From positions 47,429,535-47,456,966 of the forward strand of contig NC_057718.1 of the NCBI RefSeq assembly GCF_004010195.1: a stretch of 27,432 nucleotides of DNA, written 5' to 3'. This document shows positions 2,607 through 27,432 of the stretch, piece after piece. The stretch's first letter is position 1, and each line of letters opens with the position of its first letter. Position numbers and translations under genes: made by a program. Source of the stretch: Chiloscyllium plagiosum. Taxonomy: Eukaryota. The notes under the pieces are model-generated. The model saw only the letters and a program-made list of their open reading frames with translations. It was not told where the DNA came from and searched no databases.

Positions 2607-3640
2607 CATAGAATAATAGAATCATAGAATTTTACAGAAGAGGCTATTCAATCTGTTGAGTCTGTATCGACTCCCAAAAGAGCTACCCAGCTAGTCCCAT
2701 TCTTACTCCTATCTCCATAGCCCTCACCTTTCAGATATATATCTACTTCTCTTTGAAACCTCTTGTGGAATCCACCCCCACCACTCTCCCAGGCAACGCA
2801 TTCCAAATCCTAACAACTGTGAGTAAGTTTCTCCTCATCTCACACCTAGCTTTCTTGTTGACAACCTTGAAATTGTGACCCCTCGTTACTAACACATCAA
2901 CTACTGAAAACAGAATATCCTTCTTTACCTTGTCAGAATTGTTCATAATTTTGAACACCTCCTCTTATCCAAGGAGAATATGTCCAATATCTCTAATCTC
3001 TCCATATATCTAAAATTCATTATTCCATGTATCATTCTAGCAAATCTCATTTGCTTTCTCTCCAGGGCTTCACCATTCTTTCTTAAATAAGTTGTGCCCA
3101 GAACTCTTGCAATACTCCAAGTGTGGTCTGACCAACAATTTGTAGAAGTGTAGCATCATTTCCTCGCTTCAATACTCTATGCCTCCAATTAAAAACCCAA
3201 GGATTCTACAAGCCTTCTTAACTGTTTCAACATATCTGGCCACCTTCAGAGAATCATGCAAATGAACCCCACTCCCAAAGTTATACCAGGAGAAAGTGAG
3301 GACTGCAGTGCTCGAGATCAGAATTGAGAGTGTGGCTGGAAAAGCACAGCCAGTTAGGCAGCACCCAAGGAGCAGGAGAATCGACGCCTTGAGCATAAGC
3401 CCTTCATCAGGAATGAGGGCCTGACCGGCTGTGCTTTTCCAGCACCATGCTCTCAATTCAAAGTTATGTTATGTATTTTCTTTCTATGTTTCTTCTACCG
3501 AAACGTATTAGTGGGCATTTCCCCGTATTGAAATTCATGTGCCAGGTGTCAGCCCATTTGGTCAACTTGTCAATGTCACTCTGAAGTCACTCGTCATTGT
3601 CACAATTCTCCCTAGTTTAGTATTATCTGCAAATTTAATG
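2607..3640 (-). mobile_element. 5'-truncated CR1 LINE (RT C-terminus, 3' UTR, tail), interrupted by an insertion at 3285-3458
   Basis: Minus-strand translation gives KFADNTKLG (~3635-3610, the CR1 FADDTKL motif), VKKACRILGFL and TRGHNFK...VVRIWNALP. Tail catagaataatagaatcatagaat (2607-2630) = rc of (ATTCTATG)-like repeats. Frameshifts and stops are present. Confidence 0.92.
3285..3458 (-). mobile_element. Short fold-back Penelope-like (pLTR-derived) insertion, family A, with a decayed hammerhead core
   Basis: Flanked by exact caaagttat at 3276-3284 and 3459-3467. Partial inverted arms (gctggaaaagcacagcc / ggctgtgcttttccagc). Minus strand reads CTGATGA-A-GGGC-ttat-GCTC-aagg-CGTC (GAAA mutated). 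Homologous to 13870-14087 and 27329-27432. Confidence 0.8.

Positions 3641-5034: not shown

Positions 5035-5088
<54 letters not shown>
5035..5088. repeat. Perfect (TA)27 microsatellite
   Basis: Direct reading, 54 bp uninterrupted. Confidence 0.98.
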
Positions 5089-12285: not shown

Positions 12286-12900
12286 AAATTAAAAACTCAT
12301 TTGGCACCAAAGTACATTTCATGGTTTGAATACCAGGTCTACACTGGCAGTTCCTAACCATGAGAGAAATGTGTTGCAGCAAGTGGACGAAATGCTTCTG
12401 AGTGGAAAAATATTGGTCAAAGTTTCCACTCCTGATTACAATTCAGTTACATGTTGGATCAAGCTCAGCAAATTATCCACTAAAACTCACTTTATACTCT
12501 TACAAATACTTGTATGAAATACCAACTGATTGCTGTTCCCAAAGCAATTATATCCCAGCATAATTGAGTGACTCATTGGTGGTTATCCTTCGGGGAGCCA
12601 GCTGGATCTCTTTGATGTCAATGTTGCTCCAACTTAAAACTGATATTTGCTCAGATCCATAATACTCTAGAGTACTATTGTAGAACTGAAAGAATAGACT
12701 TGTCACTAGAGATTGGTTTTTACCCATCCTCTTCCAGTTAAGCCCAAAACTCTATGTCCAATAGGCTGGTAAAACCATTAAACCTATCAATGCACTGTGT
12801 TGACAGTCTATGTGGATTTTGCTGGTTTGATTCCTGCAGTAGCCATATCCAAACTTCAAGTTTTTACATTTTATGAAATCCACAAGATCAGGAAATGTGG

Positions 12901-13136
12901 TGCATAAACAGAAATTGCTGGAAAAGCTCAGCAGGTCTGGCAGCATCTGTGAAGAAAGATCAGAGTTAACATTTCGAGCCCAGTAACCCTTTTTCAGACC
13001 CTTCTGAGGAAGGTCACCGGACCTGAAAAGTTAACTCTGATCTCTCTTTACAGATGCTGCCAGACCTGCTGAGATTTTCAAACAACTTTTGCTTTAGTTG
13101 CTGATTTACAGCAGCTGCAGTTCTTTCGGTTTTTAT
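12901..13136 (+). mobile_element. Fold-back Penelope-like insertion, family B, with two opposed hammerhead cores
   Basis: Imperfect ~90-bp inverted arms (~12906-12997 / 13004-13095) and a ~40-bp extension on the right. TSD tcaggaaatgtgg (12888-12900) / tcaggaactgtgg (13137-13149). Plus strand: CTGAGGA-AGGTC-accg-GACCT-GAAA (13004-13028). Confidence 0.85.
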
Positions 13137-13379
13137 TCAGGAACTGTGGCGATCAGGTTGACTTAATTAGGCAGAATTTCAGATTCTCAAGGATGGATTG
13201 TGATGCAGAGATAAGCTCAGCAGCATGCTTGCAGCATGTTAAACATGATACCAGTCTGTGGAGGCTTGGTGCTTGAAGTACATTTGTTTGCTATGAATAC
13301 TCATTAACAAAAACCTTTGTCTAATTTCATCTCACATTCAAGATAATATCAGCGGTGTGTGAGAGTCCTGTGTTAACCA

Positions 13380-13720
13380 ACTCACTCTCATTTGAGGGGG
13401 ACTTGCACTATCAGCTGTGTGCAGCTGTGAGTAAGGGCAGTGTATTTTCTTGTTTAAGTCTACATCATAAAGGAGGGGAGCAGGAGAATGGCCACTTGCA
13501 TGGGTAATTAGGACTGGCAGTGATGAAGTGGAATGTAAATTGAAATCTACTGCACAGAAGAATAGGTGGGAAGGGCCTAATATCTTGGGTGTAATGGGAT
13601 GTTTGGTGGGGACAGTCAGTCCCCGAAGTAAGAAAATGAGTGATATAATGGAAGATGTCAATATTATCTGATCTCTGCTCAGAGTGAATGGTAATAATAT
13701 CATTTACAATGCATGGAGGG
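13380..13720 (-). mobile_element. Possible ancient L2-type LINE endonuclease relic
   Basis: Minus translation contains VDFNLH (GDFN-like) followed by ITHASGHS (PTH..GH.LDL-like), in APE-domain order but very degenerate. Confidence 0.35.
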
Positions 13721-13961
13721 GAGAGCTAACTAAACATAGAAGTTCAGCTATGTCCCGCAAAATGGTAGATAGAACCCAAACATTAACATGAACATTCAAT
13801 ATACAGCGAATAAGAAAGATGTCATATTGTTTCTTCCATAATAGACGAAATATGCTAAACTCCCTTATAGGAGAAAGTGAGGTCTGCAGATGCTGGAGAT
13901 CAAAATTGAAACTTTATTGCTGGAACAGCACAGCAGGTCAGGCAGCATCCAGGGAACAGGA

Positions 13962-13999
13962 GATTCGATGTTTCGGGCACAGGCCCTTCTTCAGGAACC
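13962..13999 (-). ncRNA. Minimal hammerhead ribozyme motif (opposite arm)
   Basis: Minus: GGTTC-CTGAAGA-A-GGGC-ctgt-GCCC-GAAA-C-ATC-GAATC. A 5-bp stem I (GGUUC/GAAUC, one GU) is possible. The ACGT palindrome has changed to ACAT (CpG-type transition). Confidence 0.7.
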
Positions 14000-14030
14000 T
14001 GAAGAAGGGCCTGTGCCCGAAACGTCGAAT
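13998..14030 (+). ncRNA. Minimal hammerhead ribozyme motif (type I-like, Penelope-type)
   Basis: CTGAAGA (13999-14005), A, stem II GGGC-ctgt-GCCC, GAAA (14019-14022), palindrome ACGT, triplet GTC (14024-14026). Stem I is mostly lost at the inversion junction. Confidence 0.75.
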
Positions 14031-14624
14031 CTCCTGTTCCCTGGATGCTGCCTGACCTGCTGTGCTGTTCCAGCAATAAAGTTTCAACTAAACTCCCTTA
14101 TAACCAATATGTGCCAACCAAGAGACATGCCAGAGCATATAACTCTTTGATTCAGCCAGTCTTAGTAAATAACAATGATGAAATATTTGTTAATCATTAC
14201 ACATCAATAAAGTGAAACCAGTATAATGTTTACGAATATATTTACAAATGAAACTTAATTTTGAAAAACACCCATACCACCTTTGAACTGCTAAGTCTTA
14301 TGATAATGACAATATAGTTGGGTGTGGCTGTGATGCAGAATCTTCTTGTTTGCACACAGTCTCTTTTTTTAACTACAACTATTTGGCCTTATTGCATTGT
14401 CAGTTGGCATTAGGTTTCACCACTGAAATTTCCACCAGTGATGAATTGCATGTGTTTTGAATTCATGCCTCTGGCACCTAGAATTTTAATTCCAAACACA
14501 AGAATGTAACTGGTCACTGTTCCAGTTGAGAATAGCAAGTTATTTTCAAAATTCTAATCTACAAGTGCGGAAACAAACTTGACTTGTGTGAATTTCTCAG
14601 CAGATTGGTTTAGAGAAGATGCTG

Positions 14625-14775
14625 GACTCTGATCCAATAGTAACTTCCAAAAGAAAAGACTTCACAAGGTTGAAATTGCAGGGCTCCAGGAAAACAGAAT
14701 AATAGTGAGATAATTGAAGAACCCTTTCAAAGAGGAAGCACAATTACCCTGAGCCAAATGTGTTGTGTGTTATCT
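14625..14775 (+). mobile_element. Decayed CR1 3' end
   Basis: caatagtaacttccaaaaga...ttgcagggct...ctttcaaagag...gagccaaatg follows CR1 3'-end order (cf. 9410-9545). Confidence 0.4.
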
Positions 14776-16297
14776 ATCAACCTAACTTGATCTTAAAAAT
14801 AATGCCAATTAAATTTAATTTTGCAAACTAACTTTGAAGCAAATTGTAAAGAAAGGAAGATTTGAAGGGAGAAGAGAAGTAGGCTTGATATGACGTGTTC
14901 TTTGTAAAGAATGAGTGCTGTGAAAGGGAATAAGTGGAGAATTATAAGTGAGAGGAATGACAGTAGAATTCACAAGAAAGCAGAGAAAAAACTGGACATA
15001 TTATTCAAAGAGGAAGACATAGAGATGGCACTAGTAAGTGAGTAAGATTGGTGGTGAGATTGTAGGGAGCTAGGAATTAATGATAGATATGATGAGAGTG
15101 ATGGACAAGTTCAGAGAGAAGATGTTGAAGGGTAAAAGAATGTAAGTGGCTGCAGTTCCATTTGGGATATTGGGGATGGTATGTTGTTGATGATATTCCA
15201 ATCTATAAGTAGGGAAACAAACTCTACTTATATGTATTTCTCAGAGATTGCTGATGAAAGAAGACTTGGTGATAGGGATAAAACATTGAACACAACTGTT
15301 GAGGCCATGCCATAGCCACAAACTCCACTAGAAATTTCAGGCAGCTGCTTTGTAACTCCTTCCCCCAACATGCCACACTATGACCTATCTCTCACCTGGA
15401 AGAAAAGAAAAGGAAAAGACAGAAATCAAAAGAAAAAAGTGAATAAGGAAGATAGAAGCATAGTGAAAATTGGATGCCAGAGACACATGAAATGAGACAT
15501 TAACAGGGAAACCAACAGAGACAAGTAAGAGGCCATGTTCTCCAAATTGGCTTGCTCAATGACAAAGGACCTCAACTGGTTACATTTCCTCTGATAATTT
15601 GTGGTAAAGCAGGACTGAAGACAAATATCATAATTTATCATCTTGGAAATTTTAATGAGATTATTTACTTCCTTTGGGAGATTTATCCTTGCATACAAAT
15701 CATTGAAAGGTGCTTGAGGGGGCCAAATAATGTTTTGGTTATTTTGCATATTGATTATCTTATGACAATATGGGCAACTAATTTTGTAAAACATTAGATA
15801 AAGTATAATAATTGCACTATCCATGTGTTGCCAATGGAGTGTGACATGAAAGAGCATGCAGGGAGTGTATTGGCATATTTTATGTTAAATACAAGTTGTT
15901 CTTGTTGTAATGTGGAAATATTTGCTCAGATTTGCAATAGAGTCAGTTGACAATGAGGAATAGAGTGTCTATTAGATCTTTAGGTTGCTTTGATTGCATC
16001 ATTCATGGCCAAGGAACGCACAGCTATGCAGTGCTCCACTGTGTTAAAATGACTCAATGTAGCTGCAACATTGACAGCTGTGAGGAAAGCTGCACTTCTC
16101 CATAGTTGTCAGTCAGTCATGAGAAAGTAGTATGTCATATCACAGTCTCCGGCCTGAACCAGAAGTGCCAAAGACAAGTTTCCTCTGAATTGCCTAGGAA
16201 GAACTGTCTGGACTAATAAAATAAAGGTTTGAAGTGACAACATATGCTTATATAATTGGTGCAGTATCTCTTGTTCCTCTGTTCTTTATGTCATTCA

Positions 16298-16340: not shown

Positions 16341-17851
16341 CACAGCTGAACTACCTTAAATAAAAAGAAAGCCAGCTATTCTTCTGACTTTGACCATCTC
16401 CCCACCCACTTACCCCAAAAAATGAGGCTGGTGAGTTAAGCAGTATTCTCAGCAACAACAATTAGTATCAAAGTGACCTCATATGTGCCAATTTAAACAA
16501 CCTCTCACAAAAGCAACTCAGAAATGACTTTGAGCAGACAGCTAGGTTAAACACAGTTCCACCTTAGCAGCTAAACATCAAAGGCACACACTTCACCGTA
16601 CTTGAGCACGTAATCCAGATTATCTCTTCAATTTAGTAAGAGTTTCGTGCAGAGGAATTGGAGGTGCAATGAGATGACTGTTGGTTGGCTTTCCATGATC
16701 CAGATTCTTAAAGTGAAATTTAATATACATTCAAGTTATTTGGATTTTCCTTTAAAAGAGCACAGAAAGTTTCTCAGAAAATTGAAATTAAAGTTAATAT
16801 GAAAGCCCCAAATGCAGGAACAGAGATATTAATTATCTTTAAGATTGCTATGAAACTTCCAGTTTTCATATGAGTACATTAAATTGTGCAGGAAAGATAT
16901 TGCTGTCTGATAGGCAATCATGTTACTAATTCTAGCCTCAACCCTCTCCCTCCATCACAATTTGGCCTTTATCAACAAACATCGTACTCTCCTATTGTAC
17001 AATATGTTGTTCTTTTCCCTCCTCCCCTGTCTGTTCATTTTTACTAACAACACTTTTCCCAAGATTTCAAAACTGGATTCTGTACTAGCTTTTGCTACTT
17101 GCTAGAATTGTCATGTTCTTAAAATCCATATTATTCAATGTTTAATCATTATATTGTGAATCACCTTGACTTCTCTTCCAGCCTTTTCTGTGTTTGTTGT
17201 ATTGTGCATTATAGGCATTGATGTTTCATGTTGATATATTTTACAAAATAGGGTTTTTAAAATCTAAATATAATTCTTGTGCTCAAATTCATTGATAATC
17301 TTGCTAATCGGAAATAAGGTGTTATTTTCAATGTGACCTGCTCTCCTGTGCGAATGCACAGTGAAGCCTAGTGTGCGCCTTTGATGTTGAGTTGCTAAGG
17401 TGGAACTGTGTTGAACCTAGCTGTCTGCTTAAAGTCATTTCTGAATTGCCTTTGTGAAAAGTTGTCCAAATTGACACATACTGAGGTCACTGAGATAGTA
17501 ATTGTTGTTGTTGAGAATACCGCTGGTTTAGCAGCTAACTGTAACTCACTAGCCTCATCTTTGGGGTGATGGGGTCTGGAGGATGGTCAAAGTCAGAAAA
17601 ATAGCTGGCTTTTTTAAGGTAATTCAGCTATAACTGATTAGAGCCAATGAGGTGCTAAAGGAATTCGTATTTATTTGAACGACAAAGCATGACAAATACA
17701 AATGCATGCAAGACCTTTACATTTGCAGAATGATTCTTTGCAAATAATTAGTATAAACAAAATGATTGCACACCATTTATAAACAAACAAAACTGCAATG
17801 ATTTTCTCTATCAAAAGTAATGGCCTTTTCTTACACCCTGCTATTTTTCAG

Positions 17852-20391: not shown

Positions 20392-20924
20392 ATATGAACA
20401 AGCAGAGTCCACATGGCTTCATGAAAGGTAAATCATGCCTGCCAAATTCATTAAAAGTTTTGAGGAAGTAACAAGTAAGATTGATGAAGGGGAAGCACTG
20501 GATGCAATATATTTGAATTTCCAGAAGGCATTGGGTAAGATATCACATGTTAGTCTGGTTAACAAGATAAAAGCCCATGGTGTTGCAGGTGGTGTATTAG
20601 CACAATAGATGATTGGCTAACTAATAGACCGAGTTTTGGATTGAGGGCATTTTCAGGATGGCAACCTGTGACACATCATTTGTTACAGGGATCAGAGCAC
20701 AATTATTTGCAATACATGTTAATGACTTGGATGAGAAATGTGAATGCACTATAGCCAATGTTGCAAATAAAACAAAAATAGGTAGGAAGGCAAGTGCTAA
20801 GGATGGCAAAAAAAGTGTACAGAGAGATATAGACCGGTTAAGTGAGTGAGCAAAAACTTGGCAGATGGAATATGATGTGGAGAAATGTGAGATTTTTGGC
20901 AGGAAAAATAAAAGAGCTGAATTT
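20392..20924 (+). mobile_element. CR1 'host' element, piece 2 (RT core)
   Basis: QSPHGFMKGKSCL, IYLNFQKA, LFAIHVNDLD...VANKTKIG...QRDIDRLSE, WQMEYDVEKCE, ending at KNKRAE. Confidence 0.92.
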
Positions 20925-23900
20925 TCAAGGCAAATTCTCAAAGGGGAACATGAATAGCCAGAGGTCATTGCACACATTAAAACCAACGAGTGGGGAGAGA
21001 AAAAGGTTTGAGGTTTTGCAAAGTTATTATATGGAGTTAGGTAGGAGGTTAAAAAGTATAACCTCGAGATTAGTAATCTCTGGATTTCTCCTAGTGCCAG
21101 TGATAGTAGGAATAGGAGAATGGGGCAGATGAATGCGTGGCTGAGAAGCTGGTGCAAGGGGCAGGGATGCAGATTTTTAAAAGTGATCGGTATAAGAGGG
21201 ACTGGTTGCTGCTGAGCTGGTGGGGGACCAATATCCTGGTGGGCAGATTTCTGAGTGCTATTCGGTAGGGTATAGACTAGTCTAGCAGGGCGGCCTAAAT
21301 GATAGTGAGACAAAAGAAAAGATCAAGGCTAGTACAGAAGTTAAAGAGAGCAAGTTAAATAGACAAGTCAGGCAAGACCAATCAGGGAATGAAGGATGAA
21401 TTAAACTATGTTTATTTCCATGTAAGAGGCCTGACAGGTAAAGCAGATAAACCCAGGGCATGGAGGGGTCGTGGGACTGGGATATCACAGCTATTACAGA
21501 AACATGGCTGATGGAGGGACAGGATTGGCAGTTTAATGTTCCAGAGTATAGAAAAGATAGAAGAGGAGGCAAGAAAGGAGGGGAGTGGTGTTTTCGATTA
21601 GGGAAATCATCACTGCAGTATTTAGAAATGATATTCCTGGAGGTTATATGGGTAGAACTGAGAAATGTGAAATGGATGATCACGTTGATGGGATCATACT
21701 ATAGGCTACCCAATAGTCAGTGGGAACTTGAGCAAAGATGTAGGGAGATCGCAGGTAGCTGTAAGAATAATTGGGTTGTAATAGGGGAATTTAACTTTCC
21801 AAACAATGACTGGGACTGCCACAGTGTTTGGGCTTGGACGGGAGGAATTTATTAATTGTGCTCAGTAAAGATTTCTCAATCAATATGTAGGTGGCCCTTC
21901 TTGAGAAAGAGCAAAACCTAAGCCCTTGGGAAATAAGGCAGAGCAAGTGAGTGAGGTGTGTGGAGGAGCATTTTGGGACTAGTGACCATAATTCTATTGG
22001 TTTTAAAATAGTTACAGAAAGGTTTAGGCCTGGTTCAAAAGTTAAAGTTCTAAATTAGGGCAAGGTCAATTTTGATGGTATTAGGCAGGAACTTTCAAAA
22101 GTTGATTGGTGGAGGCAGTTCACAGGTAAAAGGACATCTGGCAAGTGGGAGACTTTCAAAGGCAAGATAATGAGAATTCATGGCCTGCATGTTTCTATTT
22201 GTGTGAAGGGCGAGGCTGGCAGGTGGAGGGAAGACTGGATAACTAGAGATATTGAGGCTCTGGTTAAGAAAAGGAAGGAGGCATATATCAGGTATAGGCA
22301 GTTGGGCTCAAATGAATCCCCTGAGATGTACCGGGATGGAGGAGTACACTTACTTGGGAAATCAAGAGGACAGATAGGGGACATGAGATAGCTTTGGCAT
22401 ATAGGGTAAAGAAGGTTCCAAAGAGATTCTACAAGTATATTAATGGCAAAAGAGTAGCTAGAGAAAGAATAAAGCCCTGTAAAGATCAGTGAAGCCATCT
22501 ATGTATCGAACCATAGAAAATGAGTGAGATCCTAAATGAATATTTCTCGTCAGTATTTACCGTGGAGAAAGATATGGATGCTAGGGAAATCAGGGAAGTA
22601 AATAGTGATATCTTGAACAGAGTGCACATTAGGGAAGAGAAGGTGCTAGAAGTCTTAAAATAACTAGAGGTAGGTAAACCCCTGAGACTTGATCAAGTGT
22701 ATCCTAGAATATTGTGGGAAGCTAGGCAAGAAATTGTGGGGCCTCCAGCTGAGATATTTGTATTATCATAAACCGTGGGTGAGATGCCGGAAGACTGGCG
22801 GGTGGCTGATGATGTACCATTATTTAAGAAAGAATGCAAGGAAAAGCCAGGGGACTACAGACTGGTAAACCTAATGTCAGCAGTGGGTAAATTGCTGGAG
22901 GGGATTCTGAGACACAGGATCTACATGTATTTGGAGAGGCATGGACAAGTTAGGGGTAGTCAGCATGGCTTTATGTTTGGGAAATTGTATCTCACAAACT
23001 TGATTGAGTTTTTTGAAGAGGTGACCAAGAAGATAGATGATGGCAGAAAGGTAGATGTTGTCTATATGAAGTTTAGCAAGGCTTTCAACAAGGTTCTACA
23101 TGGTAGATTGGTTTGCAAGATTAGATCACATGGGATCTGGAGCAGCTAGCTGATTGGATACAAAATTGGCTTAATGATAGGAGACAAGGTGGTGGTTGGG
23201 AATGTTATTCGAACTTGACAAGTGGTGCACTGCAAGGATCTGTGCTAGGTCCACTGTTGTTCATCATTTATAAAAATGATTTGGTTGAGAATATAGGTTA
23301 GTGAGTTTGTAAATGACACCAAAATTACTGGTATTGTGGAGAATGAAAAAGGTTATCTAAGAGTACAATGGGATCTTGATCAGCTGGGCCAGTGGGCTGA
23401 GGAATGGCAGATGGAGTTTAATTCAGATAAATGCAAGGCATTGCATTTTAATAAGAGAAACTGGGCAGGATTTATAGTTAACGGTAGGATCTTGGGGAGC
23501 GTTGTCGAACAGAGAGACCGAGGGGTGCAGTGTGAAAGTGGCATGACAGGTAGATAGAGTGGTGAAGAAGGCATTTGGCATACTGCCTTCGTCAGTCAGG
23601 GCATTGAGTACAGGGGTTGGAACATCATATTACATTTGCTCAAGGCATTGATAAGGCCACATTTAAGTACTATCCGCAATTCTGGTCACCCAACTGTAGG
23701 AAGAATGTTGTTGAACCAAAAAGGGTGCAAAAAAGACTAGCAAGGATGTTACTGAGTATAAGGAAAGACTGGATAGGTTGGGACTTTCTTCCCTGGATCA
23801 TCAGAGGCTAAGGGATGTCCTTAGAGAAGTTTATAAAATCATGAGGGGCATGGATAGGGTGAATAGCCAAGATCATTTCCCACGGGTAGGGGAGTCCACA

Positions 23901-24170
23901 ACTGGAGAGCATATGTTGAAGATGAGAGGGGAAAGATTTAAAAGGGACCTGAGGGGTAGCATTTTGTTTGGAATGAGCTGCCAGAGAAAGCAGTAGGGGT
24001 ACGTACAATTGCAACATTTAAAAGACATTTGGATTGGTACATGGATTGGAAAGGTTTAGAAGGTTATGGACCAAATGCAGGCAAATGGGACTCGTACAGT
24101 TTAGGAAACCTGTTGGCATGGACGAGTTGGGCTGAAGGGCTTGTTTCCATGCTGTGTGAGTCTGACGAAA
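20925..24170 (+). mobile_element. Near-full-length degenerate CR1 LINE: ORF1 esterase remnant, ORF2 (APE + RT) and 3' UTR
   Basis: ORF1-like ELGRRLKSITSRLVISGFLLVP (SGNH/esterase region, ~21030-21100). APE: DITAITETWL, IGEFNFP, SDH (21981). RT: PEDWR...YRLVNLMSAVGKLLE, QHGF, DVVYMKFSKAFNKV, QGSVLGPLLF (~23233), FVNDTK (~23306), WQMEFNSDKC. CR1 3' UTR to ~24165. Many stops and frameshifts. Confidence 0.96.
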
Positions 24171-24527
24171 GCATGAGGGGTGTAGATAAAGTGAATAGTA
24201 GGTGTCTTTTCACTAGGGTGGGGGGTTTCAAGACTAGAGGCATATTTTTTCAGTGAGAGGAGAAAAATTTAAGAGGGACATAAGGGGCAACCTTTGTACA
24301 CAGAGGGTGGTTTGTGTGTGGAATGAACCTCCAGAGGATGTGGTGGATGCAGGTACTGTTACAATGTTTAAAAGATTATTAGGTAAGTATGTGAATAAGA
24401 AATGTTTGGAGGGATATGGGCCAAGTATAGGCAAGTGGGACCAGTTTAGTTTGGGATTATGGTCGGCCTGGACTGGTTGGACCGAATGGTCTGTTTTCAT
24501 GCTGTATGACTCTATGACTATGACTCT
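24171..24527 (+). mobile_element. Separate CR1 3' fragment in tandem with the previous element
   Basis: Restarts at MRGVDKVNS (repeating the region at ~23841), has TQRVVCVWNEPP...FKRLL, and has its own tail gactctatgactatgactcta. Confidence 0.92.
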
Positions 24528-25296
24528 AATATTAAATGGAGCAAGACTGCAGAAAGCTGCAGCAAAGAGGGATTTGGGAGTCTTCATACTAAAGCTAACG
24601 TACAAGTTATGGAGATAGTAAATAAGGCAAATGAAATGTTGGCCTTTATTCCAAATGAAATGAAGTGTGAAAGAGAGATGTCTTACTAAAACTTATACAA
24701 TTAACTCGTTAGACTATACCTAGAATACTGTAAACAGTTTTGGTCTCCTTATCTCAGGAAAAATACATTAGCTTCGGAAGCAGTCCAGAAAAGGTTTATC
24801 AGGTTGATTTCAACTATGAAAATCAATTTCATGATTGATTCCAGTTTATGAAAGGACTGTCTTATTAGGAGTGGTTGAGTAGGTTGACCCTATGCTCATT
24901 AAAGTTCAGAAAATGAGAGGCAAGTATTTTGAAACTTACAAATTTCTGACGGGACTTGACTGGGCAGATGTGGAAAGGTTGTTTCCCTTTGGGGAAAAGT
25001 CTCAGACCTAAGGGCATCATTTCAGAGAAAGGAGTCTAAAATTTAAGATGAGGATTTTTTTCTCAGACACTAGTGAATTTGTGGAATTCTTTACCACAGA
25101 GTGCTATCGAGAATGACTCATTAAACATATTCAGAGCTTAGACAGACACACTTTTAATTAGTAAGGGAATCAAGGATTAATGGGAAAAGGCAGGAAAGTG
25201 GATCAAGGATTAGCAGATCAGGCATAAACTCATTGAGTGGTAGAACAGATTCAATGGGCTGAATGGCCTACTTCTGCATCTATGTCTTAAGATCTT
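24528..25296 (+). mobile_element. CR1 'host' element, piece 3 (RT C-terminus, 3' UTR)
   Basis: Resumes with LNGARLQKAAAKRDLGV (the natural continuation of KNKRAE), then LEYCKQFWSPYL, VNLWNSLPQ and 3' UTR gggctgaatggcctacttctg...tatgtcttaagatctt. Confidence 0.92.
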
Positions 25297-25534
25297 GTGT
25301 GGTAATTTGCAGTCCAATGAGATTCTCACCAAATCAGTTGGTAACTTTGAATTCCTGCAAATCAAGATCCGCAACAAAGATGTCTCCAATCTCCTTGGAG
25401 ATGCAAGAAGCCCCATATGTTGGCCATCTCACTTGGGTCCTTTTCCTGCTTGCTTGGAAATGAAGGACTGGATCTTCTGTTGCCAGAAGCCACTCTTTCC
25501 ATCCATTCTTAACTGGAAGTAAACAAAGCATAAA

Positions 25535-25729
25535 AATGATGTGGAGGTGCCGTGTTGGACTGGGGTGGACAAAGTTAAAAAATCACACAACTCCAGGTTA
25601 TAGGCCAACAGGTCAATTTGGAAGTACAAGCTTTCGGAGTATTGCTCCTTCATCAGGTAGCTGATGAAGGAGCAGTGCTCTGAAAGCTGTATGTCCAAAT
25701 AAACCTGTTGGACTATAACCTGGTGCTGT
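25535..25729. mobile_element. Fold-back Penelope-like insertion, family C, with two opposed hammerhead cores
   Basis: Inverted arms ~25585-25656 / 25661-25729, spacer gtag, and a ~50-bp left extension. Candidate TSD aaagcataaa (25525-25534) / aaagtataaa (25730-25739). CTGATGA at 25661-25667 (+) and 25656-25650 (-). Confidence 0.85.
25624..25659 (-). ncRNA. Minimal hammerhead ribozyme motif
   Basis: Minus: TAC-CTGATGA-A-GGAG-caata-CTCC-GAAA-GCT-T-GTA. Intact core, 4-bp stem II, palindrome AGCT, NUH triplet CUU, 3-bp stem I (UAC/GUA). Confidence 0.7.
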
Positions 25730-26704
25730 AAAGTATAAAGAGGCAGCTAAAAGCTCTGAGGGGATGTGCTGTTTCCAGTGGGCAGAGAATGAACTGCATC
25801 CCACCTGAATTCTGCCCTCTGTAAAAGCCCATTCCTTTCTTTTAAAACAGCAGAATAATAACTAAAATAAGCACCAGCTTTTGATGGGTTAAGCGTGAAG
25901 GAAGAATCTTTGTGTTAGCTATCGTGCAACCCCATTGAACCTTACTCCAAATATGTTGTATGTATGCCCTTTCTTCCTTCATGTCATGTGATTTCTGTCT
26001 GGTTTAATCTCAAGACAACAAACATGAAGAAACCTTTCACCTTCTTTTGAAAAAAAAAAGAGTCTTTGCATCTGTTTTCCAGACTGTTCCTGGGTGTGGG
26101 CACTCTGCCTAAAAGTAGTGGTTGTTTGGTGGCAGTCTGACTCTGTAGAGTGCAGCTGCTTTCGACTCGATCGCCCTAACTCTGTCTCTCTGTCTGACAC
26201 AGCAGTACAAGTTTGGTCCAATACTCCAAGCCAAAAACACCAAATCGTGATGCTCTGAGCAGACAAAATAACTAGAAGAAGATGGCAATGTGTGATTATT
26301 GCCCTGAGCACACTCAAAGTTGGCAGCTGGGGATTTCCCAGCTTTACCAAAGCTGATCAGTAACACAACAGTCCACAGAGTTAACTTGTTAGTCATGTGA
26401 TGGTAATTGCAGCTTTCTTGCACAAACATGACTCATATTCTCTCACTGTAAGAAAGAAATAAGACACAAACATATCAAAACACAATGTTTTCTAGAGTAA
26501 TCTTAAATCAGCTTAACATGACATTCCCAATCCTATGGGTATTTTGGTACAAGTACTAATCTGAATATTTAGTTAAACTAAATAAAACTGTCTGAATGTT
26601 GGTATAGATATGAATGATAACAAAACACAGACATGTATTTTAAAGAAAGTGCAAACAGGGATGGTCGAGTTTAGGTTTCTTCTTGCTTCATTTGACAATA
26701 TTAC

Positions 26705-27328: not shown

Positions 27329-27432
27329 GAGAAAGTGAGGACTGCAGATGCTGGAGATCAGAGCTGAAAATGTGTTGCTGGAAAAGCGCAGCAGGTCAGG
27401 CAGCATCCAAGGAACAGGAGAATCGACGTTTC
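27329..27432 (-). mobile_element. Family A Penelope-like terminus, cut by the window edge
   Basis: gagaaagtgaggactgcagatgctggagatca...gcaggtcaggcagcatcc...aatcgacgtttc, homologous to 13871-13974. The last 12 nt read GAAACGTCGATT on minus (3' half of the hammerhead). Confidence 0.88.

Follow-up and report, generated by a model that had tools for sequence, protein, structure and literature searches.

A 218-bp palindromic insertion in Chiloscyllium plagiosum is probably the end stub of a Penelope-like element

Introduction

Penelope-like elements (PLEs) that carry an endonuclease typically leave a characteristic structure on insertion, in which an inverted, 5'-truncated copy is found together with a tail of 30-40 bp (PMC8557442; also PMC8969392). 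In rotifers, the tail is 31 bp long, the inverted terminal repeat (pLTR) is 37 bp shorter, and target-site duplications (TSDs) measure 8-10 bp (PMC3846280, Arkhipova et al. 2013); a repeat of 34-37 bp has likewise been reported for PLEs (PMC2377424, Schostak et al. 2008). The origin of the inverted arms and tails has been stated to be unresolved (PMC8557442, Craig et al. 2021). The best comparison for the chemistry involved is Poseidon PAc of Anolis carolinensis, whose enzyme is predicted to be a dimer, uses unprocessed RNA, and cleaves and extends both target strands, and whose tail lies between two adjacent RT start sites (Frangieh et al. 2024, PMC11167929). In the available text of that study, inverted arms are not discussed, and the word 'inverted' is used solely for a 3' dT block.

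Metazoan PLEs also bear minimal type I hammerheads, the palindromic CG of which is needed for dimer formation, and minimal hammerheads occurring in pairs, 100-700 bp from each other and on opposite strands, were on record by 2014 (Cervera and de la Pena 2014, PMC4209133). In retrozymes, by comparison, same-sense hammerheads are repeated head to tail in tandem (Cervera and de la Pena 2020, PMC7229834; Li, Clavereau and Pollet 2026, bioRxiv 10.64898/2026.07.22.740005); the supplements of the latter report cover one cartilaginous fish, and sequences related to this one might appear there. Within the shark PLE literature, we found no paper describing the repeat family considered here. In this study, we analysed a hammerhead-bearing palindrome inserted in a stretch of C. 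plagiosum DNA of 27,432 nt, hereafter the window.

Results

The insertion spans positions 13870-14087 (218 nt) and consists of two inverted arms, 13906-13995 and 13998-14087, that are complementary at 89 of 90 positions around a 2-nt spacer, AA (13996-13997), with a 36-nt tail (13870-13905) on the left side only. It is bounded by a direct repeat, 13855-13869 on the left and 14088-14102 on the right, whose two copies are identical at 15/15 positions and represent the TSD. The duplicated 15-mer has just two occurrences within the window, and an exact match of this length would arise by chance with a probability of 2.4e-9 at a fixed place and of about 6e-6 over 50x50 offsets. The sole mismatch between the arms, a T at 13969 where the opposite arm implies C, is a CpG-type transition; the five remaining CpG sites of the insert are kept. 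The arms, spacer, exact 15-bp TSD, one-sided tail and largely retained CpGs recorded in the initial annotation are thus all present. The hairpin formed by the insert folds at -197.2 kcal/mol (z = -28), and none of 200 shuffled sequences was equally stable.

Alignment to other copies in the window resolves the insert into two copies of one repeat. The main copy lies on the minus strand and occupies 128 nt (13870-13997), comprising 3 nt upstream of a hammerhead core, the core, the body and the tail; the 2-nt spacer is the end of this copy and matches the family sequence upstream of the core in a copy at 3289. The inverted copy, on the plus strand (13998-14087, 90 nt), is without the tail. The main copy is 80% identical over 128 aligned nt to the copy at 3289-3413, and 88% identical over 104 nt to a second same-family copy on the minus strand (27329-27432), which runs from the tail end and is cut by the end of the window. 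The inverted arm matches the main arm at 89/90 positions, compared with 61/69 and 69/90 for the other family copies in the window. These alignments place both arms in one subfamily, and the outer ends of the insert both coincide with ends found repeatedly among family copies. The insert had been described as having no coding capacity, which holds in substance, although not to the letter: a stop-free frame of 89 codons crosses it on the plus strand (13881-14150), with no Pfam match and no hit among longer proteins.

A hammerhead core of the form CUGAAGA-stem II-GAAA is found on each strand, at 13999-14022 on the plus strand and at 13994-13971 on the minus strand, the two cores being 4 nt apart. 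By pattern and stem check against the description in PMC4209133, the terminal repeat contains the minimal type I hammerhead motif. In the inverted copy's motif (13999-14033, plus strand), the core and GAAACGUC are intact and stem I is truncated away, leaving one pair beside the core, followed by two A-A mismatches. In the main copy's motif (13963-13997, minus strand), six stem-I pairs can form, partly borrowed from the other arm, and the mismatch at 13969 disrupts the palindrome of helix III, so that GAAACAUC stands in place of GAAACGUC and the palindromic CG is lost. Judged from sequence, neither motif is a complete minimal hammerhead and each arm is defective. Thus, of the 'back-to-back hammerheads' of the initial annotation, the presence of a core on each strand is upheld and the completeness of the motifs is not. 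A search of the window against Rfam returned no hammerhead family; two matches had E<=1, neither of them a hammerhead. Being on opposite strands, the two motifs cannot form a cis dimer within one transcript. In folding calculations on the whole 218 nt, forcing stem II to form carries a penalty of 26.2 kcal/mol for either strand, in agreement with the earlier proposal that the hairpin sequesters the ribozyme; the hammerheads would be passengers buried in the hairpin.

The window holds three further complete elements of the same plan, all of them older, giving four for comparison, of which two belong to the family of the 218-nt insert. The same-family stub (3276-3467, minus strand) has a tail, a main copy, a 40-nt inverted arm (arms 34/40 identical) and a 9-nt direct repeat. 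A related family is represented by a stub at 12888-13149 (plus strand), with an inverted arm, a main copy bearing a 42-nt tail, arms matching at 75/92 and a 13-nt repeat with one mismatch, and a third family by a stub at 25525-25739 (minus strand), with a tail of about 52 nt, two hammerhead cores 4 nt apart, arms matching at 59/70 and a 10-nt repeat, again with one mismatch. An inverted arm is found in all four complete stubs, as is a tail of 33-52 nt confined to one side. Their flanking repeats measure 9, 10, 13 and 15 nt, of which those of 9 and 10 nt may be due to chance. The outer end of the inverted arm falls within two alignment columns of that of the 218-nt insert in the two other alignable elements, and the centres and arm lengths differ among stubs, as in the 40-nt arm of the copy at 3289. 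In three of the four, representing three families, the cores are spaced by 4-6 nt, which places the centre at the 5' edge of the hammerhead.

A short, non-coding sequence with inverted repeats and a flanking duplication might also be taken for a MITE of a DNA transposon. This reading is hardly credible here, given ends made asymmetric by the 36-nt tail instead of symmetric terminal inverted repeats, duplications of 9-15 nt, arm lengths that vary and a hammerhead motif within the arms. Instead of a TSD of fixed length, one of 15 nt is found at the insert and one of 9 nt at the other complete same-family copy (n=2).

A match to the Rfam family MIR5048 at 25586 scores 39 bits against a gathering score of 160 and was dismissed as just the hammerhead palindrome of the third-family stub (25535-25729). 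Stubs of this kind could pollute miRNA annotation.

Four of 24 listed runs were compared with positions 12700-14800: the DNA runs X2 (the same species, organism A, sample S2), X5 (organism A, sample S3, from another study) and X9 (a related species, organism B, whose flanks differ from the window by 2-4%), and the RNA run X21. The three DNA runs placed 70,779, 58,265 and 54,694 contigs, respectively, on this interval, nearly all of them on two repeats, and the summed repeat depth, which is not a copy number, exceeds that of the flanks by about five orders of magnitude. The repeat family of which the insert is a member is very abundant. In the three DNA runs, 263, 201 and 217 contigs end at 13869, with a flank agreement of 0.33-0.34, i.e. 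heterogeneous flanks. Loose ends pile up at this position, and therefore the tail end, at 13870, is the 3' terminus of the family; the window copies at 3289 and 27329 begin at the same terminus. By summed depth, T at 13883 accounts for 44% and 39% in organism A and 7% in organism B, and A at 14029 for 40% and 40% compared with 9%. That these subfamily letters are far commoner in organism A is as expected of recent amplification, and points to amplification of the insert's subfamily after the split of organisms A and B.

Joints between positions 12906 and 13869, in which 34, 6 and 25 contigs link the end of the 12906 family that has no tail to the tail-bearing end of the insert's family, on opposite strands, were also seen; they are either nested insertions at the ends of other stubs or an artefact of homology between the families. 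In a profile search with six hits, three of which were inspected, the C-terminus of a hypothetical protein of Chiloscyllium punctatum (P0004, GCC20401.1) was found to read into the repeat, so that the family is also represented in this carpet shark record; the protein is likely a gene-prediction artefact or an exonised stub. The two further inspected hits were rejected as unrelated repetitive proteins. DNA pattern scans found no copies of the family in viral contigs or in prokaryote genomes, and phage records held no match to it; the 17 loci returned from metagenomes were treated as chance, none of them matching beyond 20-26 nt.

Each of the three DNA runs contains one contig that connects the two flanks of the insertion with exactly 233 nt (218+15) missing and with the 15-nt duplicated sequence present singly. 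The X2 contig (record 6) matches 13108-13854 and then 14088-14284, that of X5 (record 12) 13566-13854 and then 14088-14173, and that of X9 (record 21) 12946-13856 and then 14090-14800. No filled allele was seen among the listed reads and contigs of X2, X5, X9 and X21. The share of window words was highest in X1, possibly the source sample, at 0.91, against 0.82-0.83 in X2-X4, which would fit the presence of the junctions in X1 and was not counted as evidence. The insertion is real and, with its 15-bp duplication, entered a previously empty site; since empty-site contigs occur in all three DNA runs, it is young and not fixed. This bears out the initial annotation, which had called the insertion recent and suggested a search for an empty site: two other samples of the species and the related species have the single 15-mer. 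The stub at 12906-13136 provides an age-order control, since it is also found at the same place in organism B, where X9 records 15 and 21 run into and through it, and it is therefore older than the 218-nt insertion. Relative to the window, the organism B contig has 21 gap positions in the left flank, within 12946-13856. The dominance of T at 13969 in contigs is an assignment effect, as records with C go to the other arm, and has no dating value.

Perfect palindromes are a known artefact of long-read assembly, and all three DNA runs show only the empty allele among the listed records, as would be the case if the palindrome were an assembly fold-back. We nevertheless regard such an artefact as highly improbable, because the inserted sequence comes from a repeat family and not from the locus itself, its start coincides with the terminus of that family, the duplication is exact and the correct right flank resumes after it. 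The arms also differ by one mismatch, and the same plan is seen in older, decayed stubs, one of which organism B shares.

X21 is a polyA single-cell RNA run, of which 2% was sampled, yielding 1,727 reads. Reads fell in 10 of 30 bins, on the repeats, apart from one stray bin with a depth of 0.76; 99% of placed reads continue into other sequence, and no reads of note lay in the unique flanks of the insert in this sample. The run gave no sign that the locus itself is transcribed, or that its hairpin is edited or diced as the initial annotation had suggested it might be. The family is transcribed from other places. Its RNA occurs in both directions, and 136 reads extend upstream of 13998 into other sequence. 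No RNA run is among the 24 listed holders. Differences of A>G in RNA at 13903 and 13905 were considered as possible editing and rejected as paralog variation, since the same differences stand in DNA contigs.

The remainder of the window contains several unrelated features. Inverted repeats of about 250-270 bp at 16355-16600 and 17360-17630, identical at 209/267 positions and some 770 bp apart, show no hammerhead motif and are possibly derived from an old DNA transposon, or else represent a dispersed repeat present twice. A decayed LINE, which we take to be CR1-like, extends from about 20800 to 24600 and includes an RT fragment (RVT_1, 22772-23146) with an E value of 2.9e-5, below the cut-off. 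On the minus strand, a fragment at 18770-19390 matches Pfam PF09004 (E 1.2e-9), a model that presumably hits the 3' part of Rex1/L2-type LINE ORFs. A diverged local duplication (14500-14600 and 15136-15244; 73-78% identical, about 640 bp apart) and a (TA)n microsatellite of about 54 nt (5035-5088) were also noted.

Discussion

We propose that the 218-bp insert is a truncated pLTR end stub of a PLE-type element, built at insertion, a conclusion that its structure and motif make quite probable; it is from these that we assign it to the PLEs. Four of five PLE insertion features are present: an inverted, 5'-truncated copy adjoining the main copy, a tail at one end only whose 36 nt fall within the range of 30-40 nt, a short and variable TSD made at insertion (15 nt, with repeats of 9-13 nt at the three other stubs) and a hammerhead motif. 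No RT/GIY-YIG ORF tied to the family was found by searches among longer proteins, which are weak evidence, or in the three of six profile-search hits that were inspected.

The structure is the published signature of PLE insertion. In common with insertions of endonuclease-bearing PLEs (PMC3846280, PMC8557442, PMC2377424), the locus has a head-to-head truncated copy that is shorter by about the length of the tail, a one-sided tail of 30-40 nt, a variable TSD, a palindromic junction and proof of an empty site. It differs from them in that only the pLTR end is present and the centre lies at the hammerhead edge, in a TSD of 15 bp compared with 8-10 bp in the rotifer examples, and in being a polymorphic vertebrate site for which protein searches found no parent ORF. 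As in PAc, the tail would lie between two RT start sites downstream of the hammerhead, an uncleaved hammerhead is kept in the cDNA and the target is A/T-rich; unlike PAc, no in-frame ORF start is evident at stem II (PMC11167929). The motifs themselves share with the minimal type I hammerheads of metazoan PLEs the CUGANGA core, the extra nucleotide before stem II, the G10.1-C11.1 pair, the palindromic 15.2-16.2 and the occurrence of close pairs on opposite strands (PMC4209133), but each arm here is without one requirement, stem I in one case and the palindromic CG in the other, and the ribozyme fold would lose out to the hairpin. The initial annotation had argued for recent retrotransposition by Penelope-type machinery as opposed to a MITE, and the empty site, the duplications of 9-15 nt and the asymmetric, tailed ends agree with this. 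Of the two forms that it had offered, the minimal inverted-pLTR product of an abortive insertion gains support.

The other form was a minimal non-autonomous, retrozyme-like unit. In a related reading, the whole palindrome would be a non-autonomous unit, retrozyme- or SINE-like, that is transcribed from a palindromic master and whose hairpin RNA is the template for a PLE enzyme. Several observations are compatible with this idea: three of the four complete stubs are centred at the hammerhead 5' edge, the family has RNA in both directions, mobilisation in trans requires nothing more in cis than pLTRs (PMC3846280), and animal retrozymes have been proposed to be non-autonomous derivatives of PLEs (bioRxiv 10.64898/2026.07.22.740005). 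Like metazoan non-LTR retrozymes, the insert is short, non-coding and pLTR-related, with a type I hammerhead and a TSD longer than 4 bp (PMC7229834; bioRxiv 10.64898/2026.07.22.740005). We nonetheless consider a palindromic master quite improbable. The two complete same-family copies differ in centre and arm length, the arms of the insert match each other far better than they match other copies, a 90-bp hairpin of -197 kcal/mol would presumably be a poor template for RT, and 136 RNA reads continue upstream of 13998 into other sequence. Nor does the locus resemble a retrozyme in its defining feature: in place of head-to-tail, same-sense tandems, which in retrozymes give circular RNA, the two hammerheads here form one pair, oriented head to head on opposite strands, the cleavage site is not where the copy starts and, on sequence and folding, neither ribozyme would be competent for self-cleavage. 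With both motifs defective and an uncleaved template apparently copied, the retrozyme-like unit is not supported.

If the insert is indeed a PLE stub, we see a somewhat better than even chance that it arose by priming on both target strands. Read inward from each duplication, both ends of the insert are element 3' ends: beyond 13869 the plus strand is complementary to the tail end, and from 14088 the minus strand is complementary to the element at a point 36 nt further in. Because the Anolis chemistry involves both strands and two start sites, we infer by analogy a staggered cut and one cDNA per strand at this locus, an application of the PAc chemistry to the palindrome that is our own. A PLE RT/GIY-YIG protein would cut the target, leaving 15-nt 3' overhangs; the plus-strand 3'-OH at 13869 would prime at the outer RT start, that is, at the tail end, and the minus-strand 3'-OH at 14088 would prime at the inner RT start, which lies 36 nt inward of the outer one. 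Both cDNAs would then copy through the uncleaved hammerhead, as the Anolis element has been found to do in vitro (PMC11167929), and would end at points 3 nt and 1 nt upstream of the core, either because the RNA begins there or because the RT stalls. The template would have been uncut at the ribozyme site because both arms keep the whole core. Repair would finally join the two cDNAs head to head, yielding a product that would be dead on arrival. In the open-access literature searched, we found no paper stating this two-strand explanation.

Alternatively, a single cDNA, or an antisense template, could fold back and prime itself, copying the first arm and stopping short of the tail, and palindromes at inverted junctions were interpreted as self-priming by Arkhipova et al. 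2013 (PMC3846280 Discussion). Arms that are alike at 89/90 and centred on a 2-nt spacer suit such an event, but in the 218-nt copy they fit two-strand priming equally well. We count in support of two-strand priming that the inverted arm has a constant outer end despite variable centres and arm lengths; this common end is accounted for by two RT start sites (PMC11167929), whereas fold-back has no built-in reason for it. Fold-back would moreover need a loop of about 65 nt in the copy at 3289, where no primer-like match was seen at the junction. Overall we judge fold-back rather unlikely, and slightly less so, though still doubtful, once the PLE identity is granted. Against two-strand priming stands the 4-6-nt spacing of cores in three of four complete stubs, a pattern not expected if a long RNA were truncated at random but expected of a palindromic master. 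Such near-core centres would be explained by a short RNA starting there, by an RT stop or, less likely, by a palindromic master. This leads us to a speculation that we consider unlikely but worth stating: the shark lineage may have an active, hammerhead-headed RNA of about 130 nt, a PLE-dependent SINE-like unit that starts just upstream of the ribozyme core and is inserted by two-ended target-primed reverse transcription, with one target strand per start site, writing a new 90-bp hairpin at each landing.

As a single locus, a dead stub of an abundant family matters little, and insertions of this type are already known; what is new is that the site is empty in two further samples and in a related species. 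The empty-site contigs fix the exact boundaries of the insertion, and they show movement of the subfamily so recent that presence/absence variation still exists among members of the species. Young stubs would serve as population markers, and a genome-wide set of them would test two-strand priming against fold-back by sequence alone. If the PLE-dependent SINE-like RNA proposed above is real, segregating copies would be fresh footprints, in a vertebrate, of the integration step of PLEs.
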